Shown here: positions 1 to 42,844 of the stretch, piece by piece
Layout of the letters: every line of letters starts with the position of its first letter
Numbering within the stretch: the stretch's first letter is position 1
Source: Chloroflexia bacterium
GTDB taxonomy: Bacteria; Chloroflexota; Chloroflexia; QHBQ01; JADMIH01
NCBI GenBank assembly: GCA_049580985.1
Contig: JBAURA010000444.1
Location: 1-47,768 of the forward strand
Direction: 5' to 3'
DNA length: 47,768 nt
The notes under the pieces: generated by a model
Database searches by the model: none
What the model saw: the letters and a program-made list of their open reading frames with translations, nothing else
What the model was told of the DNA's origin: nothing
Program-made: the position numbers and the translations under genes

Positions 1-521
1 GCTCAGGAGCATGACCCACCACATCCTTAGCCTGATTGAAGAACCGCCTGGCCGCAACCAAATCTCCCCTCTTTGAGAGCATCGAGTCCACCAGGTTGCC
101 ATCCCTATCCACAGCACGATACAGGTAGCACCATTTGCCGTTCACCTTGATATAGGTTTCGTCGACATACCACGACCGACCAGCCTTGCCCTTGCCTCGG
201 GCCCGCAATTGCTCAGTAATGAGTGGGGCAAAGCTAGTTTCCCACTCCCTGACTGCATAGATTGCATAGAACTTCTTTGTTGAACTCAAACCCTCGAGAC
301 AGGAACATTTCTGCTAAGTCTCGTAAGCTCAACTTGTATCTTAATCTCCACAGGATGACTAAGAGCACGATGTCAGTAGGGAACTGAAGATGGTTGTATG
401 GAGTGCCAGTGCGCTCGTTGAAAACCCGTACACAGTCAGAACAACGGAAAGTCTTGTAGCGGAGAGAGGTTTTCCTGGAAAGCTGGGTGGTTGTCGGGGA
501 TGAGCAGTGAGGGCATTTCAT
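1..521 (-). pseudogene. IS6-family DDE transposase, frameshifted and truncated by the window edge
   Basis: ORF 234..521 encodes the N-terminal Zn-finger/HTH part (MKCPHCSS..CSDC..FNERTGTPYNHLQFPTDIVLLVILWRLRYKLSLRDLAEMFL). After ~nt 270 the homologous reading continues in another frame down to nt 1: IYAVREWETSFAPLITEQLRARGKGKAGRSWYVDETYIKVNGKWCYLYRAVDRDGNLVDSMLSKRGDLVAARRFFNQAKDVVGHAPE. This is typical of the start of an IS6 DDE domain. One frame break therefore lies around 255-275. Confidence 0.7.
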
Positions 522-15605: not shown

Positions 15606-15644
15606 TCCATGCGCCGGAACCTACCTACCTCGGCGTAGCGTAGC

Positions 15645-15691: not shown

Positions 15692-15806
15692 TTTGCAACT
15701 ACAACTCATTAACTGTGCGTTTTTCAATGCACGCAGTTCAGGCCCTCTCCACCTCGCCTGCGTTTATCCATTACCTTTCGCCCCAGCACAGACCCAGGAG
15801 TCGCTA

Positions 15807-19754: not shown

Positions 19755-19830
19755 GACCCGGCACGGCGTAATGTAATAGCCGGTAAAGCCGGTAAAGAAT
19801 GTGGCAAGCTTGGAGGCAGAGGAGGCCGCT

Positions 19831-22934: not shown

Positions 22935-23195
22935 ATGGTTAAGCCAAGTGTAGATGAGATCAGGGCCGTAGCGGCGCAGATAGTAGAACGCGCAAACCGC
23001 GACCCGCAGTTTATGGAGCAGCTTAGGAACGATCCGGAGACGGTGCTCCTTGATGCAGGCCTCCATGAAAGCGCCGTAGGAGACTTTATGCGGTCAGCAG
23101 GCCTCATGCCTGAGGTGCAAGGCTATATCCTGGAGGACCTGGATGTGCCGTGCCAGTACTCGTGTCTGCCTAACACGCATGGGGGAATAGGCTAA
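22935..23195 (+). CDS. Lanthipeptide precursor 2 (NHLP-like leader)
   Basis: 86 aa with an ATG start. AGGAGG lies ~9 nt upstream. The leader reads EIRAVAAQIVERANRDPQFMEQLRNDPETVLLDAGL, followed by a PEVQGY motif. The C-terminal region is ILEDLDVPCQYSCLPNTHGGIG. Confidence 0.75.
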   Translation: MVKPSVDEIRAVAAQIVERANRDPQFMEQLRNDPETVLLDAGLHESAVGDFMRSAGLMPEVQGYILEDLDVPCQYSCLPNTHGGIG

Positions 23196-23333: not shown

Positions 23334-23645
23334 ATGAGTTCGGATTCCAACAACCAGCAAAGCAACGAAATCAGAGAAGTAGCCCACAGAATTCTCGAAC
23401 GTGCCAAGAGCGACCCAAATTACCTGGAGCAACTCAAGAGCGATCCGGAAGCCACGCTCGCGCGGGAGGGTCTAAGCGGCCCGGTAGTCACGCAGCTAAT
23501 AGGCGAGTTTGGGCTGGTAGAGGTAGAGGGGTATTGCGATTTCACTTGTGACTATAGTTGCAACACTGGCACCTGCCAGCTCACTTATTGCGCCCATATT
23601 CCTCAAACCGGAGGGCCGATGGAGACGCAAGTAGTTGGGGGTTGA
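23334..23645 (+). CDS. Lanthipeptide precursor 3 (NHLP-like leader, five-Cys core)
   Basis: 103 aa with an ATG start and a GGAGG RBS. The leader reads EIREVAHRILERAKSDPNYLEQLKSDPEATLAREGL, followed by a VEVEGY motif. The core is CDFTCDYSCNTGTCQLTYCAHIPQTGGPMETQVVGG. The stop codon is 3 nt before the second LanL start. Confidence 0.8.
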   Translation: MSSDSNNQQSNEIREVAHRILERAKSDPNYLEQLKSDPEATLAREGLSGPVVTQLIGEFGLVEVEGYCDFTCDYSCNTGTCQLTYCAHIPQTGGPMETQVVGG

Positions 23646-27022: not shown

Positions 27023-29020
27023 TCATCGAATCTGGCAATTGGGGAAGAACGTATTGGCGACGATCTTGGCCGACTGCCCTCTGGTAACATAGGCATTGGA
27101 CCTGAAGTACGGGCGATTCTGTGGCGGTACGCACTCCTCTCCAGGACCTCCACACGGATAGCCACCTATCGCGCCGCTACTTGCGAGGCCCTCTACCCAT
27201 GTCCAGAAGGTGGAGCCCGGAGGCACATCCTCGAACGTATGCTGCTCGCTCGGCGGCACGGGTAGATTAGCTGCGATAGCTGCGATCTTAGAGGTCTGAA
27301 CCCTTGTTACATAGGCATTGGGCCGGAAGTACGGGCGATTCTGTGGCGGTACGCACTCCTCTCCCGGCGCGCCGCAAGGATAACCGCTGATGATGTTCCG
27401 TGAGGATAGGCGCTCTACAAACTGGTGGAAAGTGGAGCCTGGAGGCACATCCTGGAACGTCTGGTTCGCATGGCTCTCTGAGTAACCTGCGGCATTGGAG
27501 ACGATCTTTGATAATTGGCCACGTGTCACCTGGTTGTTCGGCCTGAAGGTGCCGTCTGTGTAGCCCGATATGATGCTTCGGCACGCCAGGCACATCACAA
27601 ACGGGTGGAATGTGCTTCCCGAAGGTACATCGCTGAAATGGAGGACGCACGCTTCACTGACGCGGTCGCGAAGGAATACGTCGCGGGTATCGTTGTTATC
27701 GCCCGGCACCAGATTACTGGCATAAGAGCCAAAGACCACGTACCGCCCATCTGAACTGACCTGGGGCTTATGGCTGTAGCCGAGGCCTGGTTGGCCGCTA
27801 GATGTGAGGCTGATCTGCTCGGTTGTGTTCGCCTGTAAATCGCGCGAGTAAATGTCGGTCACGATATTGGGGTCGGTGGGCGCGAGGCGTGCGTTCGACT
27901 GGAAAACTACATAGCGCCCGTTCCCGCTGATGTTGGGGTCGGTGCTGTGACCTGTGCCCTGGACACCCGCAGAGTCGACGCTAACACGCATGGTGCTGTC
28001 CGTCAAGTCTCGCACGAAGATATCAAGGCTATCATTGGTATCATTGACAACCAGGTTGGAAGCGAGAGACTCAAATGCCACATAGCGACCATCGTCACTC
28101 ACCGAGGCTTCAACGCTGCGGTTGTTACCCTGGACACCTCCAGAACCGGTACTCGCAAGCACGATGGTGTTCTCAGTACGATCGCGTACAAACACATCAA
28201 AGTTCATATTGCCGTCGCCGGGGACCAGGTTGTCCGCTAATGAGTGGAAGGCGACGTAGCGGCCATCAAAGCTGATGTATGGGTCAAAAGAATGGTTGCT
28301 GCCCACCTGATTAAGAGCATTCTTGCTGATAAGCTCGAATCCGCCCGACACCAGGTCGGTCACATAGACGTCCCGCGCACCCTGCGTGTCCTCCGGGACC
28401 AGGGAGGCATAGGTATGAAACACCACGAAGCGCCCATTTCCACTGATGAACGGGGCCTCGGTACCGAAGCTATCCTGCCCGATGATACTGTTCTGGCCCG
28501 TCAGCCTGTTATAAACGAACGCGTCGGCACTGCCATCGCCATCCCCCTGCACGATGTTTTCAGCATCCGACAGATAGGCGATGTAATTTCCATCGGCGCT
28601 GATACTCGGATCGAGGCTCAGGCCATTTGCGGGGCTACCATCATACCCACGGCTGATAAGCGTGGTTGTGCCCTCTTGCCGGTCGCGTAGGAATACATCG
28701 GGGTGGCCGTTAGTGTCCCCCGGTACCAGGTTGGACGCGAACGAGTAGAAGGCGACGAACCGCCCATCGGCACTCACTCCCGTGCGTATCCCCTCGATGC
28801 CACTTGCATTATTACCCTGGGCCTCATTGTCGGCCAGGCTCACCATCTCGGTGACGGCTAACGGCACAGTAGGGACGCTTCCACCTGAAGACCCCTTGCT
28901 CTCTTGAGCCGGTTGCTCCGCACCTACAGGGGTCAGAAGCAAGCCAAACATAGCGAGGCCGCTCGCTGCGGCTACCAGAGCCTGTCGGATTCGCCCTCTC
29001 TTGATATGTGATGAAAACAA
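27023..29020 (-). CDS. Secreted beta-propeller (TolB/PD40-like repeats) protein with three C-terminal SLH domains
   Basis: 665 aa with a TTG start. AGGAG lies 7 nt upstream. The signal peptide is RQALVAAASGLAMFGLLLTPVGA. There are about nine repeats of the type DGRFVAFYSFASNLVPGDTNGHPDVFLRD. The C-terminal SLH units read FSDVPSGSTFHPFVMCLACRSIISGYTDGTFRPNNQVTRGQLSKIV and two similar copies. Confidence 0.85.
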   Translation of the reverse strand: MFSSHIKRGRIRQALVAAASGLAMFGLLLTPVGAEQPAQESKGSSGGSVPTVPLAVTEMVSLADNEAQGNNASGIEGIRTGVSADGRFVAFYSFASNLVPGDTNGHPDVFLRDRQEGTTTLISRGYDGSPANGLSLDPSISADGNYIAYLSDAENIVQGDGDGSADAFVYNRLTGQNSIIGQDSFGTEAPFISGNGRFVVFHTYASLVPEDTQGARDVYVTDLVSGGFELISKNALNQVGSNHSFDPYISFDGRYVAFHSLADNLVPGDGNMNFDVFVRDRTENTIVLASTGSGGVQGNNRSVEASVSDDGRYVAFESLASNLVVNDTNDSLDIFVRDLTDSTMRVSVDSAGVQGTGHSTDPNISGNGRYVVFQSNARLAPTDPNIVTDIYSRDLQANTTEQISLTSSGQPGLGYSHKPQVSSDGRYVVFGSYASNLVPGDNNDTRDVFLRDRVSEACVLHFSDVPSGSTFHPFVMCLACRSIISGYTDGTFRPNNQVTRGQLSKIVSNAAGYSESHANQTFQDVPPGSTFHQFVERLSSRNIISGYPCGAPGEECVPPQNRPYFRPNAYVTRVQTSKIAAIAANLPVPPSEQHTFEDVPPGSTFWTWVEGLASSGAIGGYPCGGPGEECVPPQNRPYFRSNAYVTRGQSAKIVANTFFPNCQIR

Positions 29021-29495: not shown

Positions 29496-32123
29496 ATGAA
29501 CGGCGGCACCTTACCTTTTGGACAGTGGCTCAAGCAGCGCCGTAAAACGCTCGATCTCACCCAGGAAGACCTTGCCCAGCGCGTAGATTGTTCGCTCTCT
29601 TCGATAGAGAAGATCGAGTCGGGCGAGCGACGACCTTCCCGGCAAGTGGCCGATTTGCTGGCCGAGTGCCTCGGGATACCACCCGGTGAGCGTGTTGCCT
29701 TCGCACGCTTCGCCAGATCAGAACCTCGACAAGATGTAACCACTCAGCCGGGTGAGATTGCAACAGCCTCGCCCTGGCGTGTGGCTCACCGCGAGCGCAC
29801 CAATCTGCCCCTTCCTCTCACTTCTCTGGTAGGACGCAATCGCCAGGTGGAAGAGGTCAAGAACCTCCTCATGCGCGAACGAACGCGCCTTGTCACCCTT
29901 ACAGGGGCACCCGGCATCGGCAAGTCCCGCCTCTCCCTGGAAGCAGCCGCCGAAATGGCAGGCGAGTTCGAGGACGGGGTCTTCTTCGTGCCGTTGGCTT
30001 CCATAAACGACCCGGGCCTCGTACTGCCCGCGATCGCGCGCGTTATGCATATACCGGAGGCTGCCAGCGCCTCTCTGGCTGACAGCGTAAAGAAGTACCT
30101 GGGAGACAAATCCGCGCTGCTGGTCCTCGACAACTTCGAGCAGGTGATAGATGCGGCGGCGAGCGTGGTCGACCTCCTGAACTCCAGCCCCTGGCTCAAG
30201 GTAATTGTGACCAGCCGGGAACCTCTGCGCGTGCGCGGCGAGCGCCGTTATATCGTTCCACCCCTCGATGTGCCCAACCTGGCGCAATTGCCCGGTACCA
30301 CGGCTTTACTTGAATGCTCATCCGTCGCCCTCTTCGTGGAGCGCGCCCAGGAGACTAACCCCGATTTCGAGCTTACCGATGAAAGTGGGAAAGTTGTGGC
30401 TGCCCTGTGCTCCCGCCTGGATGGATTACCCCTGGCGATAGAACTGGTCGCCACCAGCCAAAACGTCTTCTCCCCTGAAACCCTGCTCAAGGGGCTGGAG
30501 GACCGGCTTACCATGCAGAGCGAGCTGCAAGATGTGCCCTCCAGACACCAGACGCTGCGCGACGCAACCCGTTGGAGTTACGACCTCCTTGATTCCGGAG
30601 AACAAAAACTGTTCGTCAGACTCGGCGTATTCGCTGGGGGCTGCACGCGCTCCGCCGCCGAGGCGGTGTGCAACGCTCAGGGCGATTTACCTCTAAAGGT
30701 AAGCAAGGGTCTAACTTCCCTGGTCACGAAGAGCTTGTTGAATGAGCAACACCCAGAACCCGAAGAGAGGCAAAGCGCGCAACAAGACGAGCCACGATAT
30801 ACGATGCTGCAGACCATCCACGAATTCGCCCTGGAGCGTTTACATGAGATCGGCGAATCGGGCACCATCTGCCGGCTGCACGCCGAATATTACCTGGCGC
30901 TGGCCGAAGCTGCAGAGTCGGAGTTGGACGGACCACAGCAAGCAGAGCTAATGGGCTGGCTCGAGAACGAGCACGATAACCTTCGGGCCGTGCTTGATTG
31001 GGCACTTGCCAGTGGTGAAGGCCATCTAGCCCTGCAGCTAAGCGGGGCCCTGGCGCGGTTCTGGAGCGCACTGGGCTATCTGAGCGAGGGCCGCACATGG
31101 CTGGAGATGGCTTTAGCCGAACCAGGCAGCCGCAAGTCGCCACACCGTGCTAAAGCTCTGGTCGGCGCGGGCATACTGGCGTCCAGGCAGGGCGACTATA
31201 AGCAGGCCAGGGCCTTCTACGAAGAGGCCCTGGCTATCTACCGGGCGAAAGAGGATAAGATGGGCAGGGCACTAGTGCTAAGCAGGTTGGGTGCTGTGGC
31301 CAACGAGCAAGGAGACCTGGATCGGGCGGACGTTTTCTATCAAGAGGGTCTTACCCTCTCCCGTGAGCTCGGCAACAAAGCCGGCATAGCTGGCATCCTG
31401 AACAACCTGGGCAATCAGGAGGTAATACGAGGCAACGTAGATCAGGCAGGCGCGTACTATCTCGACAGTTTGCAGATGGCACGCGACCTGGGCAACAAGC
31501 AAAAAGCCAGCACGGCGCTCCTCAATCTGGGGAGGCTGGCCTTTAGCTATCAAGGAGATTATGAGCTCGCTGCCTCCTATCTCGAGGAGTGCTTGAGTCT
31601 GTGCCGCGAGCTTGGCAGTAAAGGCGGCATCGCGGCAACGCTATACCAGTTCGGGCTAGCTATGTTTTACCAGCGGAGTTACTCTCGGGCTCAGGCGTTC
31701 TTCGAGGAAAGTCTGCAGTTGTGCGAGGAGTTGAGAGAAAAGCCGGGAATTGCAGCCACACGCCTGGGTCTAGGACGCACCATCTTGCTACAGGGGGGTT
31801 ACAAGCAGGCAAAGGCCTTGTTGATCGAGAGTCTGACTTTATACCAGGAGCAAGGTATAAAAGGCGGCGTGCTAGAGTGCCTTGAAGGGTTGGCAGGTTT
31901 AGCCGCAGTGGAAGGGGGAGCTACGGACGCTGCTCGCCTGTTAGGAGTTGTGGAGGCTCTGCGAGAGGATTCTGGTCTGCGGATGTCGGTAGTCCACGGC
32001 ACGCTCTTCGCCCACTGGATGGAGCAAGCTCGTGCCCGGCTCGATGATGACCACTTTACAATGGCCTGGAATGTGGGGCGCGCTATGAGTGCAGACGAGG
32101 CGATCACATTCGCCTTGCGTTAG
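29496..32123 (+). CDS. XRE-family HTH + STAND (NB-ARC-like) ATPase + TPR regulator
   Basis: 875 aa.
- HTH: FGQWLKQRRKTLDLTQEDLAQRVDCSLSSIEKIESGERRPS.
- Walker A: LTGAPGIGKSRLS.
- Walker B-like: LLVLDNFEQV.
- STAND core: LDGLPLAIELVA.
- Multiple TPR units: LNNLGNQEVIRGNVDQAGAYYLDSLQMARDLGN and similar. Confidence 0.88.
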   Translation: MNGGTLPFGQWLKQRRKTLDLTQEDLAQRVDCSLSSIEKIESGERRPSRQVADLLAECLGIPPGERVAFARFARSEPRQDVTTQPGEIATASPWRVAHRERTNLPLPLTSLVGRNRQVEEVKNLLMRERTRLVTLTGAPGIGKSRLSLEAAAEMAGEFEDGVFFVPLASINDPGLVLPAIARVMHIPEAASASLADSVKKYLGDKSALLVLDNFEQVIDAAASVVDLLNSSPWLKVIVTSREPLRVRGERRYIVPPLDVPNLAQLPGTTALLECSSVALFVERAQETNPDFELTDESGKVVAALCSRLDGLPLAIELVATSQNVFSPETLLKGLEDRLTMQSELQDVPSRHQTLRDATRWSYDLLDSGEQKLFVRLGVFAGGCTRSAAEAVCNAQGDLPLKVSKGLTSLVTKSLLNEQHPEPEERQSAQQDEPRYTMLQTIHEFALERLHEIGESGTICRLHAEYYLALAEAAESELDGPQQAELMGWLENEHDNLRAVLDWALASGEGHLALQLSGALARFWSALGYLSEGRTWLEMALAEPGSRKSPHRAKALVGAGILASRQGDYKQARAFYEEALAIYRAKEDKMGRALVLSRLGAVANEQGDLDRADVFYQEGLTLSRELGNKAGIAGILNNLGNQEVIRGNVDQAGAYYLDSLQMARDLGNKQKASTALLNLGRLAFSYQGDYELAASYLEECLSLCRELGSKGGIAATLYQFGLAMFYQRSYSRAQAFFEESLQLCEELREKPGIAATRLGLGRTILLQGGYKQAKALLIESLTLYQEQGIKGGVLECLEGLAGLAAVEGGATDAARLLGVVEALREDSGLRMSVVHGTLFAHWMEQARARLDDDHFTMAWNVGRAMSADEAITFALR

Positions 32124-32892: not shown

Positions 32893-35484
32893 TTGCAAGC
32901 CCATCCGAACAGAGGCATACCTTTTCCTGTGACCGCCTTTATAGGTAGGTTCAAGGAGCTTGCGTCCGTCGTGGCCTTGTTACGCGATCCGGAGGTGCGA
33001 TTGCTCACGCTCACAGGGCCGCCGGGTACGGGCAAAACCCGTCTGGCTATGAAAGCATCGCAAGCTCTACAAAGCGCTTTCCGTGACGGCATTTATTTCG
33101 TGCCTCTTGCTATTACGAGAGAGGCTATTGGCGTTCTCAATGCTGTTGCGCAACGGCTTGACCTCAAGCAAATTGATGAGCAATCAGCCCCCAAGCAGGT
33201 TATTGAATATCTTAGAGAGCGTGAGACTATGTTGCTGCTGGACAACTTCGAGCAGGTACTGTCCGCGGGCCCACATCTGGTTGACTTGCTCGAACAGTGC
33301 CCAGGGCTGAAGATACTTGTCACAAGCAGAGCGGCTCTCAAGGTGTATGGGGAGCAAGAGTTCCCTGTACCGCCGCTTGCCCTCCCAGACGAGGAGCAGA
33401 CAAGGTCGTTGACCGCGGACACCGCCCTGGAATACGAAGCGGTCGCACTCTTTGCTCACAGAGCCAGGTTGGTCAATCCGTATTTCGAGGTAACCGACAG
33501 CGACGCTCCGATCGTGGGACAGATTTGCCGGGAGCTTGACGGTCTGCCTCTATGTATAGAGTTGGCGGCTGCACGCTGTAAAACGATCCCTCCTGCCTCG
33601 CTGCTTGCGCTTCTAGACAACAAGTTCGACCTTCTCACCTCGGAAGCACGCAACCTGCCACTCAGGCAGCGCACTCTGGTCGCCGCAATCACCTGGAGCT
33701 ACGAACTGCTTGATCCCAGTGAAAGGACTTTGTTCAACAGGCTCTCCATATTTGTAGGCGGCTGCACCCTGGCGGCTGCTGAATATGTTTGCACTCTGCC
33801 CGGTGAGCCTCAGCATGGCATGCTTGATCCTGTCACATCGCTAATGGATAAAAGCCTGGTTGACAGAGAGGACCGGGCAGGACAGCCACGCTTCAAGATG
33901 CTGGCTACCCTACGTGAATACGCACTGGATAGGCTTAAACGATCGGGCGAAATGCACTCCGTGCACAAACAACACGCGCGTTATTTCGGACTGGTTGTGG
34001 ACAAGGCTGAGCCGTATTTGCATAGTCCCCACAGAGACCAGTGGCTAAAAAGCCTGGACTCTGAAGTCGAGAATGTGCGAGCGGCGTTAGCCTGGTGCCT
34101 ATCGGACGCGGGCGACCCTCTCGCAGCTTTGCGTATCGCCGGGGCGTTGCACTGGTTCTGGTACTTCCGCGGTTATCTGTCCGAGGGGCGGGATTGGCTC
34201 GAAAGAGCATTCGCGCGTGTAGGCAACGACTTGCCCACCACGGTCGAGACGGCCAAGGCGCTGGATGCGGCGGGCCACCTCGCTCTGCTACAGGACGACT
34301 ACGAGGCCGTGCAGTCTCATCTGACGCGCGCCCTTGCCATGTGGCGGGAGTTGGGCGACGACAAGGGCTTGGCTTACTCACTTAGTCATGCGGGAATTGC
34401 ACGCGTGTACAGGCACGCAGACATAACGGGGCTTGCTCTGCTGAAGGAGTCGCTGAATCTATTCCAGGGCACCGACGACACATGGGGATTGGCGACAGCT
34501 TATGACCTGTGCGCCGAAGCTCACATTTTGCTCGGCGATTCTGCGGCTGCGGCAGGTTGTTACAATGAAAGTCTGCGCCTTTTCCGCGAGATGGGAGATA
34601 TGTGGGGGATCGCCGCCGAACTAGGAGAGATCAGTCGGGTTGAAATTAGGCAGGGCAACTATGTTGCAGCAAAATCGAAGCTTGACGAAGCCCTATCCAC
34701 TGAGAGGCTGGTGGAAGATCGCTGGAACAGGGCGCATACGCTCCGCAGCCTGGGCGATGTCGCTTATTGCCTGAACGACTATCAAGAGGCGCACCTATGC
34801 TACGAAAGCGCTGCCGAATTATACCGCGACCTGGGGGATCGCATGCGAATGGGGGCATGCTTGCGCTGCCTGGGCCACGTCGCACTTAGGACCAACCAGC
34901 CTGAAAACGCGAAAGCTCTCTACCTGCATAGTCTCGGCATCGCAGCGAGTCTAGGGGCGACTCCCAGCCTGGCATGGTGTCTGGCTGCTATGGCCGGATG
35001 GGCAGTCCGGATGGGCGAGGCAATACGCGCCGCCGAACTCCTGGGTGCTGCCGATAGACTGGGCAAGGCTAATCATGCAATACTGCCTGTCGTCGATGCG
35101 CACGAACGGGCCCGGACCTACGAATTGATCAAGTCGAGCCTCGGTAAGCAAGAGTTCGCCTTAGCCACAGTTCGAGGCGCTTCATTGGGGACCGAGGATG
35201 CGATAACGGTCGCGCAAAGGGTAGCCGAGCTCGGTTTGAAACAAGAGTCAGACGATATTCCCACATATGGCGGCAGACGCTCGCCGACCGTACCCAAGTT
35301 GAGCGCCCGCGAAATAGAGGTAGTCAAATTAGTGGAGCAAGGCTTGAGCAATGCCGAGATAGCTGATGCTCTCATTCTCAGCACGAATACTGTGCGCGCC
35401 CACCTCTACTCGGTCTTCGACAAGTTCGGTGTACCATCACGTACAGCCGCGGTCAGATACGCTAGAGAGAACGGCCTGATTTAG
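32893..35484 (+). CDS. STAND (NB-ARC-like) ATPase + TPR + C-terminal LuxR-type HTH regulator
   Basis: 863 aa with a TTG start (start uncertain).
- Walker A: LTGPPGTGKTRLA.
- Walker B-like: MLLLDNFEQV.
- STAND core: LDGLPLCIELAAAR.
- TPR units.
- C-terminal LuxR HTH: LSAREIEVVKLVEQGLSNAEIADALILSTNTVRAHLYSVFDKFGV. Confidence 0.88.
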   Translation: MQAHPNRGIPFPVTAFIGRFKELASVVALLRDPEVRLLTLTGPPGTGKTRLAMKASQALQSAFRDGIYFVPLAITREAIGVLNAVAQRLDLKQIDEQSAPKQVIEYLRERETMLLLDNFEQVLSAGPHLVDLLEQCPGLKILVTSRAALKVYGEQEFPVPPLALPDEEQTRSLTADTALEYEAVALFAHRARLVNPYFEVTDSDAPIVGQICRELDGLPLCIELAAARCKTIPPASLLALLDNKFDLLTSEARNLPLRQRTLVAAITWSYELLDPSERTLFNRLSIFVGGCTLAAAEYVCTLPGEPQHGMLDPVTSLMDKSLVDREDRAGQPRFKMLATLREYALDRLKRSGEMHSVHKQHARYFGLVVDKAEPYLHSPHRDQWLKSLDSEVENVRAALAWCLSDAGDPLAALRIAGALHWFWYFRGYLSEGRDWLERAFARVGNDLPTTVETAKALDAAGHLALLQDDYEAVQSHLTRALAMWRELGDDKGLAYSLSHAGIARVYRHADITGLALLKESLNLFQGTDDTWGLATAYDLCAEAHILLGDSAAAAGCYNESLRLFREMGDMWGIAAELGEISRVEIRQGNYVAAKSKLDEALSTERLVEDRWNRAHTLRSLGDVAYCLNDYQEAHLCYESAAELYRDLGDRMRMGACLRCLGHVALRTNQPENAKALYLHSLGIAASLGATPSLAWCLAAMAGWAVRMGEAIRAAELLGAADRLGKANHAILPVVDAHERARTYELIKSSLGKQEFALATVRGASLGTEDAITVAQRVAELGLKQESDDIPTYGGRRSPTVPKLSAREIEVVKLVEQGLSNAEIADALILSTNTVRAHLYSVFDKFGVPSRTAAVRYARENGLI

Positions 35485-35747: not shown

Positions 35748-35776
35748 TTGACTTACTTGTGTATCTATGATACATT
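35748..35776 (+). promoter_or_regulatory. Sigma70-like promoter upstream of the repeat-core precursor gene
   Basis: TTGACT (35748-35753), a 17-nt spacer, then TACATT (35771-35776). It sits in an AT-rich stretch ~85 nt upstream of the ATG at 35862. Confidence 0.5.
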
Positions 35777-35861
35777 TTGTATAACTTGACCGCCGCCAAG
35801 TACTCTGATGCCTGTTGCAAGGCGTCGACTTGTCGTACCATTACTGGTCAGGAGGCAAACT

Positions 35862-36470
35862 ATGTCCGTAATCGATCCCAACAATGATACCGATTTCATA
35901 GCGAAATCAATCGCCCACAACCTGCGCTACCCACCGCCGAACGTTGTGCCCTATTGGGGCTACCTTACGGCGGCCCTGAAGAGAGTACCCAATAACGGCA
36001 ACCCGAGCGCTGGCCATGAAAACGATCTTGAGCCGCCTAATGCGACTGATATCTATTGGAGGCTCTACAGAACGCTAGAGTTGCGGGAATACATCGAGTT
36101 TAGCGACGACGATGTAGTGTTCTTCAGAAAATTGGCGCTTCCACTAGCGGGGCAGGCGCAGTTACATGGTGGTTTGGTCTGGCTTAGAGTCGGAGCAAAA
36201 CTCGACCACGTAGTTGTCAATCATATGGAGGTGGAAGCCAACTACCTTCAAGGGCCCATTACGTCCACCGCCGGACCGCCCCAAGCTGGCCCCATCCATC
36301 CTGAGGGCTACTCGCCGTCAAACGTCTCATGGACCTGCGGAGGGCATTCATTCGCCTGTGGAGGGCAGTCTTTTGCATGTGGTGGGCATTCATTCGCGTG
36401 CGGAGGACAGTCTTTTGCATGTGGTGGGCACTCATTCGCCTGCGGAGGACAGTCATTCAACTGTGGGTGA
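35862..36470 (+). CDS. Precursor-like protein: 158-aa N-terminal domain plus six tandem CGG[H/Q]SF[A/N] heptads
   Basis: The ORF track starts at 35808. The ATG at 35862 (MSVIDPNN) has GGAGG 6 nt upstream. The C-terminus is TCGGHSFACGGQSFACGGHSFACGGQSFACGGHSFACGGQSFNCG. The gene lies immediately upstream of the kinase and lyase-cyclase genes. Confidence 0.75.
   Translation: MSVIDPNNDTDFIAKSIAHNLRYPPPNVVPYWGYLTAALKRVPNNGNPSAGHENDLEPPNATDIYWRLYRTLELREYIEFSDDDVVFFRKLALPLAGQAQLHGGLVWLRVGAKLDHVVVNHMEVEANYLQGPITSTAGPPQAGPIHPEGYSPSNVSWTCGGHSFACGGQSFACGGHSFACGGQSFACGGHSFACGGQSFNCG
36336..36467 (+). repeat. Tandem 21-bp coding repeat organised as three 42-bp (His-unit + Gln-unit) super-repeats
   Basis: tgc gga ggg cat tca ttc gcc / tgt gga ggg cag tct ttt gca / tgt ggt ggg cat tca ttc gcg / tgc gga gga cag tct ttt gca / tgt ggt ggg cac tca ttc gcc / tgc gga gga cag tca ttc aac / tgt ggg. 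In the first two Gln-units, the codon choices (tct ttt gca) differ consistently from those in the His-units (tca ttc gcN). Confidence 0.9.
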
Positions 36471-36570: not shown

Positions 36571-37689
36571 ATGCTAACTAAAGAAGCGGTCGCTCCCTAC
36601 TTGATGCGCCAGGGTTTGCTCGACCCCGAAGCTCTGGTAGAGAGCGGCCTCTCGATACGCCGCATCGCAGGTCGTAACTCCAATTTCATAATTGAACTAG
36701 CTAATGGCTCTGGTTACTTGCTCAAACAGGCTGTGGATGCCGAGAAGGCCTCGTTTCTTGATAACGAAGCCAGAGTCTACACCTACCTCTCAGGGTATAA
36801 CGATCAATTCACTCGTTACATACCTCCTTTGCAATCCTATAACGAGGACGAGCACATACTCGTGCTGGGGCTGCTGCCGAGTGCTCGGCAGCTAGGAGAA
36901 CATCTCGTCCGGACCGGACGCTTCTCGACTATGATAGCCAGACAGCTTGGCCGAATGCTGGCGGCTCTGCATAGGCGTGGATCTCACGATAGAGCCAACA
37001 ATCCTGTAACGCTGGCTACCAGACCAGTGCCCTGGGTTCTTTCTATCCACCGTCCGCATATTGAATTGTACCGCCTCGCCAGTCAGGCTAATCTCAACTT
37101 GATAGCTAAGATACAGATGTTCCCTGACCTTTGCGACCACATCGAGGCACTCAAGCAAACCTGGCAGCCACTAGCTCTGATACACTACGACCTAAAGCTG
37201 GAAAACATGCTGGTGGTTCCGGCCACAAAAGCCGGCCAATCGCGTTTGACCGTCCGGCTGGTTGACTGGGAGATGGCGGGCATCGGTGATCCTTGCTGGG
37301 ACATTGGATCGGTATTCGGTGCGGTATTGAGCTTTTGGCTTCACTCCATGCCCTTTTCTGGAGATGGCGCTCAAGGTTTGTCACCAGAGTTCGCGCGCTT
37401 CCCCTTGCAGAGAGCGAGGTCCGCTTTATTGAACTTCTGGATCTCGTACGAGCGAGGCATGCAGTTCGCTCCAAGTATATCGAACGATTGCCTACTGCGG
37501 TCCACCAGTTTCGCCGCCGCACGGTTGGTGCAATCGGTGTTCGAGCAATGCCAGGTAATGACGCAGCTTCCAGGCACAGCATTGAATGCACTGCAACTCA
37601 GCTCAAATATACTACACAAACCGCTGGAAGCCGCAGTCCACTTGCTAGGGCTACAGCCACGAGTCGAGTGGAACGAGGCGCAACTTTGA
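36571..37689 (+). CDS. Aminoglycoside-phosphotransferase/choline-kinase-family kinase (LanK / TvaC-like candidate)
   Basis: 372 aa. The catalytic loop is LIHYDLKLENMLV and the metal-binding segment is LVDWEMAGIGDPCWDIG. The N-lobe reads GRNSNFIIELANGSGYLLKQ. The stop codon overlaps the start of the next gene (TTGA). Confidence 0.8.
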   Translation: MLTKEAVAPYLMRQGLLDPEALVESGLSIRRIAGRNSNFIIELANGSGYLLKQAVDAEKASFLDNEARVYTYLSGYNDQFTRYIPPLQSYNEDEHILVLGLLPSARQLGEHLVRTGRFSTMIARQLGRMLAALHRRGSHDRANNPVTLATRPVPWVLSIHRPHIELYRLASQANLNLIAKIQMFPDLCDHIEALKQTWQPLALIHYDLKLENMLVVPATKAGQSRLTVRLVDWEMAGIGDPCWDIGSVFGAVLSFWLHSMPFSGDGAQGLSPEFARFPLQRARSALLNFWISYERGMQFAPSISNDCLLRSTSFAAARLVQSVFEQCQVMTQLPGTALNALQLSSNILHKPLEAAVHLLGLQPRVEWNEAQL

Positions 37690-39968
37690 TAGAGATCGAT
37701 TACAAGGCTCAGCTATTGGCTGCTGTGAGGGCTGTACGAATAGTGTCGTTGAACCGATACTCGTGGTTTGGAGCCGACACAATCGTACTGCCCGGCCGGG
37801 TCAGGCGCGCAGTCAGTCCAGACCTAGCCCGGCGCTACCTCGGGTCGAGCTTGCAGCACAGGCTCTACAACGATTTCTACTGCAAGGGAAATCCAATGCG
37901 GGGGTCAGCAGGCACGTACGGACCGCTCCAACAGAACGCGATACCCTTCCTTCAGCAGCTTGAAAGAGCAAACAGAGGCGTGGGAGGCTGGGAGACCGGT
38001 TGGCGCGTGGTGGCCAGGGGCAACCCTGCCGTCGTGCTTGAGGATGGTCGCCTTGCGCTCTGGCCGCGCCCAGATGAAATGTGGCTGGTGAACCAGGAAG
38101 CAGAGTTGGGGCACGAAGGGGCATTGCGCTATCCGAAGGGCCTTCCTTCGATCTCGCCGGGCTTCTATTTGGTGCTTGGGGACACGCCCCCGCCAGCCAA
38201 TGGCAGTGGGCCGCTTGTTCGGCTCTACTGGAACGTGTCTGCCCAAGGTGCGGCAGTTCTGGTCGGCCTGGTCACAGAGGCTCTCAACAGGTTACAGGCT
38301 CCGTTCCGCCTGAAGGTGGTTAGCAACCCTGAGCAGTTCGATAGGTGCGACACGGCGATACTCTACATAGAGGTATCACGCTACGCAACTGTCGCGGCCA
38401 CGCTGGTGGGGATCTATGCGCAGGTGCGCGACACCCTGCGCGGAGACGTGCCAGCGCTGACTGGTAAGCTTGCGCCGGGGCTTGGATTAGCCGAGGACCC
38501 AGGTGGCGGAGAGAGTTACGGCCTCCACATGTGCGGGCTACTCGCTGAAGGTCTGCTCAGAGCTTTTGAGCTTGGTCTTTCGGGTGATGCGAGATTGGGA
38601 AGTGTGCTTGCGTTACTACAAGAGAGAGGCATCTCGCCGGAGCGGCCCTATTTGCGGCCAGGTTCCCAGGATATATACAACTTCGACGTTCACCACTCAT
38701 CCGGAGCTGGGAAGGGCACCCTTGTTTGGATCGAAAACGCAACGGATTCAGACAGGGCGGATTATTTGGAAACGGCGGCGTTTATAGGGTGGCAGTTATG
38801 CCGCACGGCCATATGGTACAACAGGCGCTGCACGTGGATAGGCGCAACTGCTCCAGGCACGGTGCCCGGTGACCGATACGGGCAAGCGCTAGCTACGTTA
38901 GGACCTGATCTGTACGCTGGGACCGCGGGGGTAGGGCTATTTCTGGCCTGCCTGGCGGAGGTCACCGGCGACCCAACGGTTGAAAGGACGGCGCTCGGAG
39001 CGATGGAGCAGGCTTTCGCAACGGCAGACAGGATCGCGCCGGCCGATAGGCAGGGATTGTACACTGGCTGGATCGGGATTGCGCTTGCAGGTTGCTACCT
39101 TGACCGTTGTATGGGCCAGGGCTGGTCCAGCAGGGCAGCTAACTTGCTCGACACACTACTTGAAGCCGGCGACGCGCCCGGCGGGTTTGACTACCTGGGG
39201 GGCAGCGCTGGCGCTATCATGGGGCTGCTCGCGCTGAAACGGTTGCTGGGCTGTGGCTACCTTTATGACAGGGCGCGCTCTATGGGCGATCAATTAGCAC
39301 TGGCCGGTGCAACCGGAGAATATGCGCCGGAAGCGCATCGAACGAACGCTGGAAGGAAGTGGGGGAGAAGACCGCTAACGGGCCTTGCTCACGGAGCAGC
39401 AGGAGTGGGAGCTGCTCTTATGGAGCTGTACGCGACATCTCAGGAAGTCCGGTACAGGCACGCTTCCGAAGCGGCTTTCGCATATGAGCGTGCATACTTC
39501 GATATTCTAGAGGCTAACTGGCCAGATTTCAGGGCCGGGATTCGCAGGCCATACGCCTACTCAACACACTGGTGTCACGGCGCGCCCGGCATAGCTTTGA
39601 CCAGGCGGCGCGCATACAGCCTAACGGGAGATGTCAAATACCTGGAGGAAACGCAAGCCGGTATACAAACTACAGAACAATGGCTTGAGAGCGCGCTGCG
39701 CGCGGACCGTGAAAACTTCTCCCTGTGTCATGGGCTAGGTGGCAACGCCTGGATCGCTTTTGAAGCTGCTACACCAGGGGGTGTAGGTCGGTATTACGCC
39801 CATGCAGTGGCCAGGCGGGGCATAGAAGCTCACAAGAGATACGGAGTGTGGTTGTGTGGAACGCCTGGAGGAGAGGCCCAGGGATTGATGCTAGGTCTCT
39901 CAGGCATAGGCCTTTTCTACTTGCGTCTCGCCGGGGTAAGCTCCTTTTCACCTCTGTACATAATCTAG
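37686..39968 (+). CDS. Fusion protein: HopA1-like domain (candidate pSer/pThr lyase) + LanC-like cyclase with Zn ligands
   Basis: The ORF is open from 37293, but that part overlaps the kinase gene out of frame. Likely starts are TTG 37686 (4-nt overlap with the kinase stop) or GTG 37668.
- N-terminal half: GPLVRLYWNVSAQGAAVLV...FRLKVVSNPEQFDRCDTAILYIEVSRY (HopA1-type pattern as I recall it).
- C-terminal half: GTAGVGLFLA, GLAHGAAGVGAAL, THWCHGAPGIAL, SLCHGLGGNAWI, GLSGIGLFYLRL. Confidence 0.75.
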   Translation: MIEIDYKAQLLAAVRAVRIVSLNRYSWFGADTIVLPGRVRRAVSPDLARRYLGSSLQHRLYNDFYCKGNPMRGSAGTYGPLQQNAIPFLQQLERANRGVGGWETGWRVVARGNPAVVLEDGRLALWPRPDEMWLVNQEAELGHEGALRYPKGLPSISPGFYLVLGDTPPPANGSGPLVRLYWNVSAQGAAVLVGLVTEALNRLQAPFRLKVVSNPEQFDRCDTAILYIEVSRYATVAATLVGIYAQVRDTLRGDVPALTGKLAPGLGLAEDPGGGESYGLHMCGLLAEGLLRAFELGLSGDARLGSVLALLQERGISPERPYLRPGSQDIYNFDVHHSSGAGKGTLVWIENATDSDRADYLETAAFIGWQLCRTAIWYNRRCTWIGATAPGTVPGDRYGQALATLGPDLYAGTAGVGLFLACLAEVTGDPTVERTALGAMEQAFATADRIAPADRQGLYTGWIGIALAGCYLDRCMGQGWSSRAANLLDTLLEAGDAPGGFDYLGGSAGAIMGLLALKRLLGCGYLYDRARSMGDQLALAGATGEYAPEAHRTNAGRKWGRRPLTGLAHGAAGVGAALMELYATSQEVRYRHASEAAFAYERAYFDILEANWPDFRAGIRRPYAYSTHWCHGAPGIALTRRRAYSLTGDVKYLEETQAGIQTTEQWLESALRADRENFSLCHGLGGNAWIAFEAATPGGVGRYYAHAVARRGIEAHKRYGVWLCGTPGGEAQGLMLGLSGIGLFYLRLAGVSSFSPLYII

Positions 39969-40039: not shown

Positions 40040-42844
40040 TCATGCGGTGTCCATCGTAGTTATGGCGATGTTGTTGTCGAAGGGGACGAGCCGCCAGACA
40101 AGGGTAGGTCCGCTGGCGCAAGGGAGTGCAAGGGCGGCTGCCGGGTCAATGTTGCTCAGGTCTCCATACGCACTCACGTCAACAAGCAGGAGCACCTGCG
40201 GCCTGTCGGGGACTGTCCATTCCAGTGGCCCTATGATCTCTACGCCGCCCGCACCGACGGGCGGTCCGGATATGGAGCCTATTGAACCCGCCGACCAATC
40301 GTTAGGCCACACCGCGCCGGGAGTGCCATTGCTGTGGTAAGCTCGCATCGTCACAAGTGTGGCTGACTGGTAACCCCGATTCCACACCCGTACATACAGA
40401 TAGTTGACCGCTTTACGCACGGGTGGCTGGTGTTCGGTTAGAGGGTTTACAGTCGCAGGGTTGGGCGGCGTCGCGTAGCTCGCGCGCCGGTTCCATATCT
40501 CCGTGGTGCCATGAAAGTTCTCCAGGTACGGGGCATAGGAGCCTCGGCGGGAGTCATCTATGTACAAATCCACAGGCTGCTTGCCTGGCGCGACGACAGG
40601 TGCTGATGAGCCAGGCGGCTGATAGAGACCTTGCTGCTCGAAGCTCCATTTGATCACCTTTCCCACCGCACCGCCCGCCAGAGAGTGAGGTGTAGGCAAG
40701 TTGGGTATCTCGAGGGCCGGGTCCGGAAATGCCACAGTTGCCTTGTCAGCCTCCAACATAGCCGTCACGTAAGCGTCGGGCGTGCTTGTGGGTGTGGAGG
40801 AAGCAGGCGGCAGGCCACCAATAGCTCTGATGATCAGGTAACTCATGTACCGTGCCGCTAACTCTTTGACCGCCCGCGCAGCGGGTATCTCGTCGTGAGC
40901 AGACATGGTAGCATCGCCCCCCAGCGCGCAATACGCCCTGAATAAGGATGTAGAGAGTATCTGCTCTTGTTGGTAGCCCCAGTAGGGCTTCATGCCCTGC
41001 TTATCCTCATTGTCTATCTGGCCGCCCCATGCGTAATTCAGGTAGGTGCGTAACGAACCGCCGTGATACCTCCATCGCCCACTCAAAGCCGGATTCTGGC
41101 TCATCAGCCAGGGGTACGTGCCAAAACGCTCCGGTTCATTCACCAGCATGGTAGCAGGGTCGCTCAGTATGGCGGCGAGGCTGTCGCCAGCGCTGTGCGC
41201 GAAGGGGAAGTTGGGCGCGTGGAGGCGCGACCAGAGCAGAGCGTGGCAAAACTCATGCATCGTGATACGTGGGTCCAGCGCGTTGCCCCAGAATACCAGA
41301 GGTTCTGAGTTTAGTCGCCCGTAGTAAACGCTATCGAGGCGGGTAAAGTCTTCGTAACCCATCGTGCGCGCATCTACAGCGCCTTCCGTGCCAAGCGGGT
41401 CAACTCGAATAGGCACTTGAAGGTTGGGCGGGAAGAAGTCGTTCAACAACCCAAGATACTCCAGCAGGCCAAACATCGAGTCAAGATGGTAGTACGCGCT
41501 CACTGCGGTAAACTTCGAGGATTCGGTAATGATTTCATAGTTGAAGTTGAAGCTTAAGCTGCCAGACGGGTTTTCTGCTTGATCTTCGCCAACCGAGGGG
41601 TTCCACAGATCTGTTATATAAAGCCATTTGCCACTAAGCTTGACAGGTTTCCCCACTTCGCGGCTCACCTCGAACGACACAGGCACTCGCAGATTACGGA
41701 CATGGCTATCGCTCACAGAGGTGGGCGGAAAGAACAGGTCGTTGCCCCGGGACGTAACAGGATCAGCGTTCAGCACAAGGCCATTAGCAGTCACCATCTG
41801 CATGGCAGCAGCGACAACCGGCATATCGCCTCCTGCTGCACCCCCTGTGCCCGTTTTGCCCGTTTCGTCTATAGCTCCAACATCCTCATCATCGAAACCG
41901 TCGAGCGAGGCCGAGGCAGCATTGGGTGAGAGCAAGCTTGGCTGCTCATAATCCAAGAAACTGTCAGGGTCGTCCAGGGAGGGACTTACGAGGTTACTGT
42001 CAAGCGCTGGAGAAGGGTCTGCGAAGCAAGATACCAGCGACGTTTCCACAGAGAGCGCAAATCCAGTTTCGGTATGCACGAACGCTCGCCAATTTACGTA
42101 GCTGGGTCGCATATCGCTTCCGGTCACGCTCACGGTGAAGAGAACCTCCGTCACCAGGTAGTGTAAGCCGCCCACAAATATACCCGGCGGGAGCGGGGGC
42201 AAAGGAAGGGTTGTCAGCCTATCCAAGAAGGCGTCGGCCGACGCGGCTGTTTCTGTCATCACATCACGAGGCGACGCTTGATAGCGATAGTAAAGGAGCC
42301 TTGTGGCCTTGAACTGGACCACTTTCCTGTCCAGGGCAGGGTTATACAGTCCCAACAACGTCTCCAACATAGGTAGCGATATGCGACCGGGCAGATAAGG
42401 CGCGGTTGCCGGGTCTGTCCCTTCCCACACAGGCGAGAGATGGAGAGAGCTTTGGGAGCTTGTGATACGCAAGTTCTTGTTGTGTGGGCTAACCACAACC
42501 GATACGCCCGCTTCCCACACAGGCAGCCCGTTGATGGTCTGCGTGTAGCAAACTACGTGAGTCTTGTCGGGATTGCCTACCGATACGACGGTATTGAAGC
42601 GCAACTGAGACCCGTCCTTCGGTATAAAGTCTGAGCCTATGGGCGTACTTAAGTCGAGCTTAACCGTGTGATCGGGGTCGTAGTGGGTAGGCAGGTTTTC
42701 CACCAGGTAGCTCTGCGCCAGCAAGGCCGGGTATGACCCTTCTATATACTGGCCGAATTCCCTGATGTGTTCTATGTGCACGAGGCGACCTCGGTCGTCT
42801 CGCACACTATGGATGTTGGGCGACAGCAAATTGATACTTACCAC
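40040..42844 (-). CDS. Large putative zinc metallopeptidase (HExxH)
   Basis: 934 aa with a GTG start. AGGAGG lies 8 nt upstream. There is a single HExxH motif in the context RITMHEFCHALLWSRLH. No obvious signal peptide is present. I cannot assign a family by eye. Confidence 0.6.
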   Translation of the reverse strand: MVSINLLSPNIHSVRDDRGRLVHIEHIREFGQYIEGSYPALLAQSYLVENLPTHYDPDHTVKLDLSTPIGSDFIPKDGSQLRFNTVVSVGNPDKTHVVCYTQTINGLPVWEAGVSVVVSPHNKNLRITSSQSSLHLSPVWEGTDPATAPYLPGRISLPMLETLLGLYNPALDRKVVQFKATRLLYYRYQASPRDVMTETAASADAFLDRLTTLPLPPLPPGIFVGGLHYLVTEVLFTVSVTGSDMRPSYVNWRAFVHTETGFALSVETSLVSCFADPSPALDSNLVSPSLDDPDSFLDYEQPSLLSPNAASASLDGFDDEDVGAIDETGKTGTGGAAGGDMPVVAAAMQMVTANGLVLNADPVTSRGNDLFFPPTSVSDSHVRNLRVPVSFEVSREVGKPVKLSGKWLYITDLWNPSVGEDQAENPSGSLSFNFNYEIITESSKFTAVSAYYHLDSMFGLLEYLGLLNDFFPPNLQVPIRVDPLGTEGAVDARTMGYEDFTRLDSVYYGRLNSEPLVFWGNALDPRITMHEFCHALLWSRLHAPNFPFAHSAGDSLAAILSDPATMLVNEPERFGTYPWLMSQNPALSGRWRYHGGSLRTYLNYAWGGQIDNEDKQGMKPYWGYQQEQILSTSLFRAYCALGGDATMSAHDEIPAARAVKELAARYMSYLIIRAIGGLPPASSTPTSTPDAYVTAMLEADKATVAFPDPALEIPNLPTPHSLAGGAVGKVIKWSFEQQGLYQPPGSSAPVVAPGKQPVDLYIDDSRRGSYAPYLENFHGTTEIWNRRASYATPPNPATVNPLTEHQPPVRKAVNYLYVRVWNRGYQSATLVTMRAYHSNGTPGAVWPNDWSAGSIGSISGPPVGAGGVEIIGPLEWTVPDRPQVLLLVDVSAYGDLSNIDPAAALALPCASGPTLVWRLVPFDNNIAITTMDTA

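Follow-up and report, generated by a model that had tools for sequence, protein, structure and literature searches.

A predicted tandem-repeat precursor encoded beside class V-type lanthipeptide enzymes and a candidate metalloprotease in a Chloroflexia genome

The window analyzed here, a 47,768-nucleotide stretch from a Chloroflexia bacterium metagenome-assembled genome (MAG; GenBank assembly GCA_049580985.1, contig JBAURA010000444.1, positions 1 to 47,768 of the forward strand), encodes a 202-amino-acid protein that ends in a tandem array of seven-residue, Cys-containing units. Downstream of it lie genes for an APH-fold kinase and for a fusion of a HopA1-type lyase with a LanC-like cyclase, followed on the opposite strand by a gene for a large protein with an HExxH motif (Table 1). 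We consider it probable, judging from the sequences, that the repeat is the core of a precursor for a ribosomally synthesized peptide with post-translational modifications (RiPP), which the kinase and the fusion enzyme would make into a chain of seven small lanthionine rings.

NCBI and ENA call the same 202-residue product (P0001, on a 1.6-Mb contig), which ends in ...SNVSWTCGGHSFACGGQSFACGGHSFACGGQSFACGGHSFACGGQSFNCG before the stop codon, and its start at 35862 was favored over an upstream in-frame ATG at 35808 because of the AGGAGG listed in Table 1. Translation revealed seven Cys, all within the last 44 residues and in exact 7-residue spacing, with no Cys in the leader. A Ser stands at position -3 of every core Cys (SWTC once, SFAC five times, and SFNC once), and the core peptide reads SWTC-GGHSFAC-GGQSFAC-GGHSFAC-GGQSFAC-GGHSFAC-GGQSFNC-G. 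An earlier, sequence-only reading of this stretch had described seven Cys and six Ser in a 7-residue register between 36336 and 36470 (Cys159 to the stop codon), which translation bore out. Its count of six Ser is right for that span because the span begins at Cys159; the register itself begins 9 nt earlier, at 36327, and Ser156 is the seventh.

The same reading had proposed that the array grew by duplication of a 42-bp His+Gln dimer, a view supported at the DNA level both by Tandem Repeats Finder, which gave 73% matches for period 21 and 92% matches for period 42 (score 198), and by comparison of the 21-mers, since those of like type (His or Gln) are identical at 18-19 of 21 bases and mixed pairs in units 1-5 at 14-16 of 21. 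The codon pattern it had drawn on proved exact, with tca ttc gcN in the His units and tct ttt gca in Gln units 2 and 4, as did the divergence of the last Gln unit (unit 6, tca ttc aac). Codon differences between units were mostly synonymous, at synonymous-to-nonsynonymous counts of 50:14 in the window and 56:5, 83:6, and 23:7 in the related loci L001, L012, and L009, and 9 of the window's 14 nonsynonymous pairs (counted from the unit sequences) fall at the His/Gln position. Because differences between units are mostly synonymous, these arrays are old, with the peptide of each unit under purifying selection. The repeat region, which might have turned out to be variable junk or absent from otherwise conserved loci, is instead present and under selection in related loci.

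To place the precursor among its relatives, we drew on both a word-indexed search and an exhaustive profile search. The former returned a single relative, P0002, a 62%-identical ortholog on a 14-kb contig (L001) laid out as in the window, with a LuxR-type regulator, precursor, APH kinase, HopA1-LanC fusion, and large minus-strand protein. The tail of P0002 reads SWTC-GQSFAC-GGQSFSC-(GGQSFAC)x5-GGGSFVGC and contains nine Cys and zero His, with Ser and Cys in register. Repeat number, which the sequence-only reading had suggested comparing among orthologs, thus differs between seven Cys in the window and nine in P0002, and the Ser and Cys positions, whose loss would have spoken against that reading, are both conserved. 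This tail also shows that repeat number is variable and that the His/Gln alternation, while real in the window, is lineage-specific, the ortholog being all Gln and other family members having Gly or Thr at that position.

The exhaustive search (HMMER with a two-sequence profile against 1.84 billion representatives) revealed 429 matches at E<=1e-3, of which some reflect just the low-complexity repeat, and searching a 5.8-billion-protein index with a profile yielded 181 members at E<=1e-5. Small members of the family (150-290 aa) share a common N-terminal domain followed by a Gly-rich linker and a Cys-rich C-terminus, and the domain follows the pattern ...G-[YF]-L-G...Y-W-R-L-Y...N-E-Y-[IV]-E-F...D-V...V-W-[LV]...Q-A-x-F-L-Q-G-x-I. 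Tandem-repeat cores occur in 22 of 178 domain-carrying members, or about one in eight, and the remainder have non-repetitive Cys-rich cores. The repeat-type cores have periods of 7, 8, 9, 11, or 14 residues in about 3-8 copies with 5-9 Cys, and their units include CGGTSIP, GGSFLC, CGGGSFA, CGGGSFS, GGGSWAEC, and CPGGGTSFA, as well as CGGTSVIN, GGGSFLTC, CGGGTYN, GGGGLTATC, and CGGGSNGPW.

Across these 22 arrays, a Ser or Thr lies 2-5 residues upstream, within the same unit, for 154 of 158 Cys, and the four exceptions all belong to P0036, which has extra Cys before its repeat. The arrays start with Ser/Thr and end with Cys, and units bearing Ser/Thr equal the Cys in number. First and last units are consistently atypical, the window opening with SWTC and ending with SFNCG and other subfamilies closing with SFVGC, SLGCW, SFAGCW, SFGGCR, or SFVGCW, which suggests that position within one product matters. 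A neighbor-joining tree of the leaders did not resolve single from multiple origins of the repeat type, but 17 of the 22 repeat-type leaders had a repeat-type nearest neighbor.

The sequence-only reading had remarked that the region ahead of the repeats is far longer than typical lanthipeptide leaders and might be a folded recognition domain. The length stands, with a predicted folded domain of ~130 aa plus a 24-aa linker set against 32-34 aa for the leaders of the triantimycin precursors StnA1-3 (PMC11186320). As for folding, an AlphaFold2 model built with a 30-sequence alignment predicts six beta-strands and a helix at residues 123-130 (E-V-E-A-N-Y-L-Q), with a predicted local distance difference test score (pLDDT) >90 at residues ~27-40 and 62-130 and a disordered core; together with the constant adjacency of the family to the modifying enzymes, the model supports a recognition role. 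In the 30-sequence alignment G33, R67, Y69, Y77, and G131 are invariant and L68, D84, W107, F128, L129, and Q130 near-invariant. The linker, which varies in length and sequence among the aligned members, was modeled at pLDDT ~50 and lower, with block means of 64, 52, 44, and 36 over residues 121-160, and the named low-confidence segments (<50 pLDDT) start at residue 135. Neither the precursor nor three relatives matched any Pfam or NCBIfam family at E<=0.01, and a Foldseek search of the PDB with the precursor model gave no significant match (best E 0.13, TM <0.2), its top matches being Hcp or tail-tube-like noise.

Both modifying enzymes have their predicted catalytic motifs intact in the kinase, lyase, and cyclase alike. 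The kinase has an HYDLKLEN catalytic loop at residue 205 and VDWE at 231, and it scored 95 bits against the NCBIfam LxmK model NF038156 (equivalog cut-off 315), as a distant homolog and not an equivalog would. The long open reading frame (ORF) of the fusion opens at 37293, and alignment of its N-terminus with five homologs, together with reading of the sequence, placed the true start at 37668 or 37686, overlapping the kinase stop. Pfam assigned HopA1 (PF17914, 123.7 bits; cut-off 22.7) and LANC_like (PF05147, 161 bits) to the fusion. In the class V lyase CaoY, residues R187, K219, R229, and Y236 matter by mutagenesis or structure (PMC9486802), and R185, K216, R226, and Y233 of the lyase half keep the CaoY spacing save for one residue between the first two, a match by spacing and not by structural alignment. 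The cyclase half carries GLAHGAAG at residue 572, HWCHGAPG at 634, and LCHGLGGN at 686, the last two of which align to LanCL2 motifs (PDB 6wq1). NCBIfam models likewise placed this half nearest the LanM cyclase region (207 bits), with the LanL and LanKC cyclase regions also matching, and the LanL model scored 83 bits against a cut-off of 650.

The order precursor, APH kinase, HopA1+LanC fusion was found in 8 of 8 distinct loci with enough flank, namely the window, L001, L002 (GCA_038246015.1), L004/L005 (ERZ25039523, an ENA+NCBI contig of 1.3 Mb), L006 (Luteitalea sp. GCA_009380045.1), L008 (ERZ25039539, an ENA+NCBI contig of 152 kb), and L012. An independent phmmer/hmmsearch scan of the fetched loci confirmed this order and added L003, L009, L012, and L022; in L003 the contig stops within the fusion ORF, and in L009 and L022 the kinase follows the precursor and then the contig ends. 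The contigs of P0003, P0007, P0009, and P0013, at about 1-2 kb, are too short to offer usable flank. Hosts comprise Chloroflexia/Chloroflexota, an acidobacterial MAG (Luteitalea sp.), and metagenome contigs. The precursor is thereby tied to the kinase and the fusion, and it does not behave as a structural protein unrelated to its neighbors, an outcome the sequence-only reading had allowed for. Among the scanned window ORFs of >=150 aa, none encoded a LanD decarboxylase, LanX, or a second APH protein. A terminator scan found none between the precursor and kinase genes, and the sole promoter-like site, at 35748-35776, was no better than chance expectation.

Several of these loci depart from the common layout in detail. 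Some non-repeat loci hold tandem leader-family precursors, as in L008, where two (9475-9996 and 10001-10486) have different Cys-rich cores. The L004/L005 annotation gives the N-terminal part of the fusion a 172-aa gene of its own, whose product matches the window's fusion enzyme, reflecting either a frameshift or a genuine split. The Luteitalea locus L006 has a gene for a B12-binding radical SAM enzyme (15206-16738) ~1 kb downstream of its cassette, which hints at further tailoring in non-repeat members.

From the sequence features, domains and motifs, the gene order, the conservation of and selection on the units, and the predicted leader fold, we infer the following course for the chemical steps, the ring topology, the removal of the leader, and the part played by the HExxH protein. 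The N-terminal beta-rich domain of ~130 residues would dock the precursor onto the two enzymes encoded downstream, after which the LanK-like APH kinase would phosphorylate the Ser in every G-G-x-S-F unit and the HopA1-type lyase half would eliminate the phosphate to leave dehydroalanine (Dha). The zinc-dependent LanC half would then add the Cys three residues downstream, such that each S-x-x-C becomes a four-residue lanthionine ring and the product would consist of seven small thioether rings linked through Gly-Gly-His/Gln hinges. The HExxH protein, which is transcribed divergently and has a thermolysin-type zymogen build, would then most likely remove the leader. Over evolutionary time, ring number would change by gain or loss of repeat units, and in the window's lineage this would have been by duplication of the 42-bp His+Gln dimer. 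Of the outcomes the sequence-only reading had listed, the chain of S-x-x-C rings is the best supported, given the enzyme motifs, gene order, and Ser/Thr-Cys register. Its number of six rings falls, as there are seven potential rings because SWTC counts. One ring per unit, from Dha or dehydrobutyrine (Dhb) at position i to Cys at i+3..5, fits the arrays better because the reverse pairing strands the terminal Cys.

A further companion of the repeat-type precursors is the HExxH protein, of about 900 aa. In 7 of 7 repeat-type loci it either adjoins the precursor or is fused to it, and it is present within 10 kb in 0 of 3 non-repeat loci; its gene adjoins the precursor in the window, L001, L002, L009, L022, and L023 and is fused to it in L012, and an eighth repeat-type case is the fusion protein P0006, whose locus is outside this count of seven. 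In the two fusions (L012 1806-5288, + strand, and the 890-aa P0006), a whole HExxH protein stands N-terminal to the leader domain and a (CGGGSFA)x8-9 core. A candidate protease joined in this way to its own RiPP substrate is, to our knowledge, without precedent. The HExxH protein of L001, P0004 (8537-11842, - strand), contains at residues 353-490 an inserted copy of the leader domain that lacks the last helix and the core and, judged by eye, is visibly very similar to the leader of that locus's own precursor. The insertion site corresponds to the disordered loop 275-344 of the window's HExxH protein, between its propeptide-like and catalytic regions.

In terms of architecture, the HExxH proteins share the block HEFGHxLLWDSVHSPNFGFAHSAGDSL, some members are labeled "zinc metalloprotease ZmpB" by JGI, and homologs occur in Streptomyces. 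Over its N-terminal third the window's protein is similar to the propeptide of vibriolysin MCP-02 (3nqy_A, E 3e-4) and to PepSY domains, its C-terminus is CARDB/Ig-like, and Pfam matched only FTP (thermolysin-propeptide), weakly, at 18.3 bits with a cut-off of 21. An AlphaFold2 model built from an alignment of database homologs reached pLDDT 81.5 and a predicted template modeling score (pTM) of 0.87, and the sequence itself gave zero matches at E<=1 in the PDB. The protein probably processes the modified precursor, as a leader or processing peptidase, by either a single cut or a cut at every hinge. Using the HExxH protein as the query for a genome scan of related loci, we found its HExxH/FAHSAGD family (~900-1000 aa) in at least 8 loci of other phyla without a lanthipeptide cassette or repeat ORF (L011, L013, L014, and L016-L021), where a weak FTP propeptide match is its only annotation. 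The family's hosts are Symbiobacteriaceae, Actinomycetota, Acidobacteriota, Longimicrobiales, Thermoanaerobaculia, Rhodobacterales, Verrucomicrobiae, and Streptomyces. The family is thus a broader one, with one branch recruited to the repeat-type system.

A number of points weigh against the ring chain as we have set it out. Dehydration, cyclization, and topology are predictions, and each Cys might alternatively react with the Dha that lies four residues downstream (C-G-G-x-S), leaving the last Cys and Ser156 unused. The LxmK score of the kinase, far under the cut-off (95 versus 315 bits), leaves its substrate and specificity unproven. The catalytic core of the HExxH protein matches no solved protease by sequence or fold, nor any Pfam peptidase model, and because of this and of the cassette-free loci its role as leader peptidase is one of association. 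The leader, at >=130 residues, is much longer than the class V leaders described, and its removal may never happen. Finally, neither a transporter nor an immunity gene belongs to the conserved cassette.

Some of these points are what would be expected if the N-terminal domain were retained, giving a ~200-aa protein, or a ~1150-aa fusion with the HExxH protein, that bears a permanent multi-ring thioether tail. Such a tail, an appendage resistant to proteases, could serve in anchoring, assembly, or binding, with the HExxH protein as a partner and not a leader peptidase. The leader is confidently predicted to be globular, unlike the short class V leaders described, the natural fusions P0006 and L012 put the HExxH protein N-terminal to leader and repeats, the coreless leader copy inside the L001 HExxH protein fits protein-protein docking, and the conserved cassette lacks an exporter. 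Yet the Q-A-x-F-L-Q-G-x-I motif followed by a disordered, variable linker resembles a leader/core boundary, the non-repeat members have ordinary Cys-rich RiPP-like cores, and the fold search gave no significant match pointing to a structural role, and we therefore regard a retained, stapled tail as unlikely.

The near-identity of the units and the purifying selection upon them would also suit a multi-core cassette, in which the rings form and the HExxH protein or a subtilase then cuts the 7-residue units apart at Gly-Gly to release six or seven monocyclic lanthionine peptides. Copy number among relatives ranges from 5 to 9, as expected if dosage matters, and the HExxH protein accompanies only the repeat-type precursors (7/7 versus 0/3). 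Set against this, the units are just 7-9 residues long with no flanking recognition sequence beyond Gly2-4, the first and last units differ from the internal ones in a way that suggests position in one product matters, and related loci have no counterpart of the subtilase at 43939-45414; we consider this outcome quite improbable.

The sequence-only reading had also offered a Cys/His-rich metal-binding product, that is, an unmodified tail for Zn, Cu, or Fe with the neighboring enzymes unrelated, for which the seven Cys and three His, regularly spaced, in the window's precursor might speak. Comparison with orthologs largely refutes it: because His is not conserved (every unit of P0002 has Gln instead, and other subfamilies have Gly, Thr, or Pro), the option is disfavored, and the conserved partner of Cys is in any case the upstream Ser/Thr. 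As it also leaves the strict kinase/lyase/cyclase gene order unexplained, we give it very little credence. Least credible of all is low-complexity junk or a cell-surface structural repeat unrelated to its neighbors, which the lack of a Pfam or NCBIfam family for the precursor and an SLH-domain protein 7 kb away might have suggested, but which is refuted by the synonymous excess and the invariant gene order with the modifying enzymes and opposed by the register conserved in orthologs and by an N-terminus in which no signal-peptide-like sequence was noticed by eye (no signal-peptide predictor was run).

Table 1. Positions of the features discussed, numbered from the first nucleotide of the window.
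Feature	Position	Strand	Description	Basis
Precursor gene	35862..36470	+	202 aa plus stop: leader domain, linker, repeat core	Translation
Shine-Dalgarno-like AGGAGG	35850..35855	+	6 nt before precursor ATG	Read from sequence
Leader domain	35862..36254	+	Residues 1-131; family-defining, predicted beta-rich; ends in conserved ...EANYLQG helix	
Linker	36255..36326	+	Residues 132-155; Pro/Gly-rich, predicted disordered	
Core	36327..36467	+	Residues 156-202: SWTC, (GG[H/Q]SF[A/N]C) x6, G; seven S-x-x-C motifs	
APH-fold Ser/Thr kinase, LanK-like	36571..37689	+	372 aa	Pfam PF01636, 56.8 bits (cut-off 23.2)
LanY-LanC fusion	37668..39968	+	766 aa from GTG 37668, or 760 aa from TTG 37686	
Phospho-Ser/Thr lyase (HopA1/LanY) domain of fusion	38145..38654	+		Pfam; PDB 9dk1_B 'Lyase', E 8e-13
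LanC-like cyclase domain of fusion	38898..39932	+	Contains zinc-ligand motifs	Pfam and motifs
HExxH protein, candidate zinc metalloprotease	40040..42844	-	934 aa	HEFCH at residue 530 and FAHSAGD
STAND ATPase + TPR + LuxR-type HTH regulator	32893..35484	+	Directly upstream of precursor	Pfam
HTH + NB-ARC + TPR regulator	29496..32123	+		Pfam
TPR regulator: adenylate/guanylate cyclase + NB-ARC + TPR	2470-5424	-		Pfam
TPR regulator: TPR + BTAD	8499-12071	-		Pfam
Subtilase (S8)	43939-45414	+		Pfam
Subtilase (S8)	5473-6351	-		Pfam

Beyond the cassette itself, the window holds four large TPR-containing regulators, which form a dense regulatory layer around its lanthipeptide genes. The one directly upstream of the precursor is probably the pathway regulator, and L001 has a TPR + GerE regulator at the corresponding position that also carries a guanylate-cyclase domain. 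The HTH + NB-ARC + TPR regulator before it is possibly part of the locus, a similar architecture upstream of the L002 cassette being a weak association. A 665-aa protein combining PD40 (WD40-like beta-propeller) and SLH domains (27023-29020, - strand) is probably unrelated to the cassette. As a candidate pathway protease, the subtilase encoded 1.1 kb past the HExxH gene was rejected, for it is absent from all related loci.

The window also encodes lanthipeptide enzymes of a second kind. Two genes (15657-18623 and 23649-26480, both + strand) encode class III/IV-type synthetases with RamC_N, Ser/Thr protein kinase, and LanC-like regions, and they look class IV (LanL)-like because the WCHG and YCHG/LCHG zinc-ligand motifs are kept. 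With these two LanL-like genes beside the class V-type cassette, the window is a lanthipeptide super-cluster with two enzyme classes. Just upstream of the LanL-like genes lie three small ORFs (15342-15605, 22935-23195, and 23334-23645, all + strand; 87, 86, and 103 aa) with similar N-terminal regions (...R[IV]L[SE]..A..DP.....L..DP[DE]...), two of which have Cys/Ser/Thr-rich tails (e.g., ...GYCDFTCDYSCNTGTCQLTYCAHIPQTGG) and the third two Cys (...DVPCQYSCLPNTHGGIG); all three probably encode precursors for the class IV-like enzymes. Between the LanL-like genes, a 1015-aa ABC transporter (19801-22848, + strand) combines transmembrane and ATPase regions with a C-terminal cyclic-nucleotide-binding domain and a ~300-aa N-terminal extension without an assigned domain, and an exporter gated by cyclic nucleotides would be unusual.

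Returning to the ring chain, it is possible, though we advance this tentatively, that the system represents an undescribed branch of lanthipeptides with a folded leader domain of ~130 aa and a fused lyase-cyclase. One sub-branch would make a genetically expandable "bead chain" whose 5-9 minimal lanthionine rings are identical, and it would be served by a new HExxH protease family that in some organisms is fused to the substrate. Under this interpretation the chain may stay on the protein as a thioether-stapled tail or leave it as a modular poly-ring peptide, with repeat expansion tuning ring number. In the literature searched we found no LanY-LanC fusion, no such leader family, no tandem-repeat lanthipeptide cores, and no associated HExxH protein, although the supplement of the primary class Vb paper may show fused homologs. 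If confirmed, the system would widen the range of class V chemistry to include Chloroflexota, Acidobacteriota, and further lineages from soil and metagenomes. Handles for genome mining and engineering would be the leader-domain profile, which retrieves hundreds of unannotated precursors, the natural LanY-LanC fusion, and the minimal repeated G-G-x-[S/T]-hydrophobic-x-C unit. This unit is attractive as a building block for designed peptides in which the number of small thioether rings is to be programmed, and the HExxH-precursor fusions and inserted leader copy would be natural experiments on how RiPP enzymes and proteases recognize a folded leader.

Multi-core RiPP precursors such as those of cyanobactins, multi-core microviridins, and the thiovarsolins (VarA) have units with flanking recognition or cleavage sequences and are released separately. 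The precursor described here is like them in presenting a short modified unit in tandem at a copy number that varies among relatives, and unlike them in that its kind of unit is 7-9 residues long, with nothing but Gly between one unit and the next, and in that the first and last units are distinct. The NHLP and Nif11 families are long-leader families used by ProcM-type class II systems. Our family shares with them an unusually long conserved leader over many precursors with hypervariable Cys-rich cores, but there is no sequence relationship (zero Pfam/NCBIfam matches), the leader is predicted to be a beta-rich globule, and the enzyme class differs. As for class IV, LanL enzymes follow the same sequence of phosphorylation, elimination, and cyclization by a zinc-type LanC as predicted here, but they do so with a eukaryotic-type kinase (PF00069) and an OspF-type lyase in one chain, whereas here a separate APH-fold kinase stands beside a lyase-cyclase fusion.

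The closest comparison is with class V, which is defined by dehydration of Ser/Thr by LanK (PF01636) and LanY (PF17914) and in whose class Vb a LanC cyclase is used (PMC12291118, PMC11186320). Class Va (cacaoidin, lexapeptide, pristinins, and triantimycins) has the same LanK + LanY pair and turns S/T-x-x-C into small N-terminal (methyl)lanthionine rings (PMC11186320). It differs in needing LanD and LanX, in its aminovinyl-methylcysteine (AviMeCys) end, and in having no LanC and 1-3 Cys per core (PMC11186320, PMC12291118). Class V lanthipeptides have so far been found only in actinobacteria, according to a 2025 review (PMC12328550), and as of 2024 the sole member of class Vb was mSmoA^C from Streptomyces, made by SmoK/SmoY/SmoC (Pei et al. 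2022; PMC11186320; summarized also in PMC12291118 and PMC12328550). Like class Vb, the window's system has an APH-fold kinase, a HopA1-type lyase, and a zinc-type LanC, with no LanD or LanX in the ORFs scanned, and only lanthionine rings are expected, with no S-aminovinyl-cysteine (AviCys). Its core, with seven S-x-x-C motifs, likewise has the Ser/Thr and Cys of a class V precursor. It departs from the described Smo system, where lyase and cyclase stand alone, in fusing the two, and in having a folded leader domain of ~130 aa from an uncurated family in place of a short peptide leader, a tandem array of small non-overlapping rings in place of two overlapping rings plus one, hosts among Chloroflexia, Acidobacteriota, and others, and an HExxH protein that accompanies the repeat type. 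Judged by its predicted enzymes, then, the system belongs with class V and specifically class Vb, and it is by its long leader that it stands apart from the class as described.

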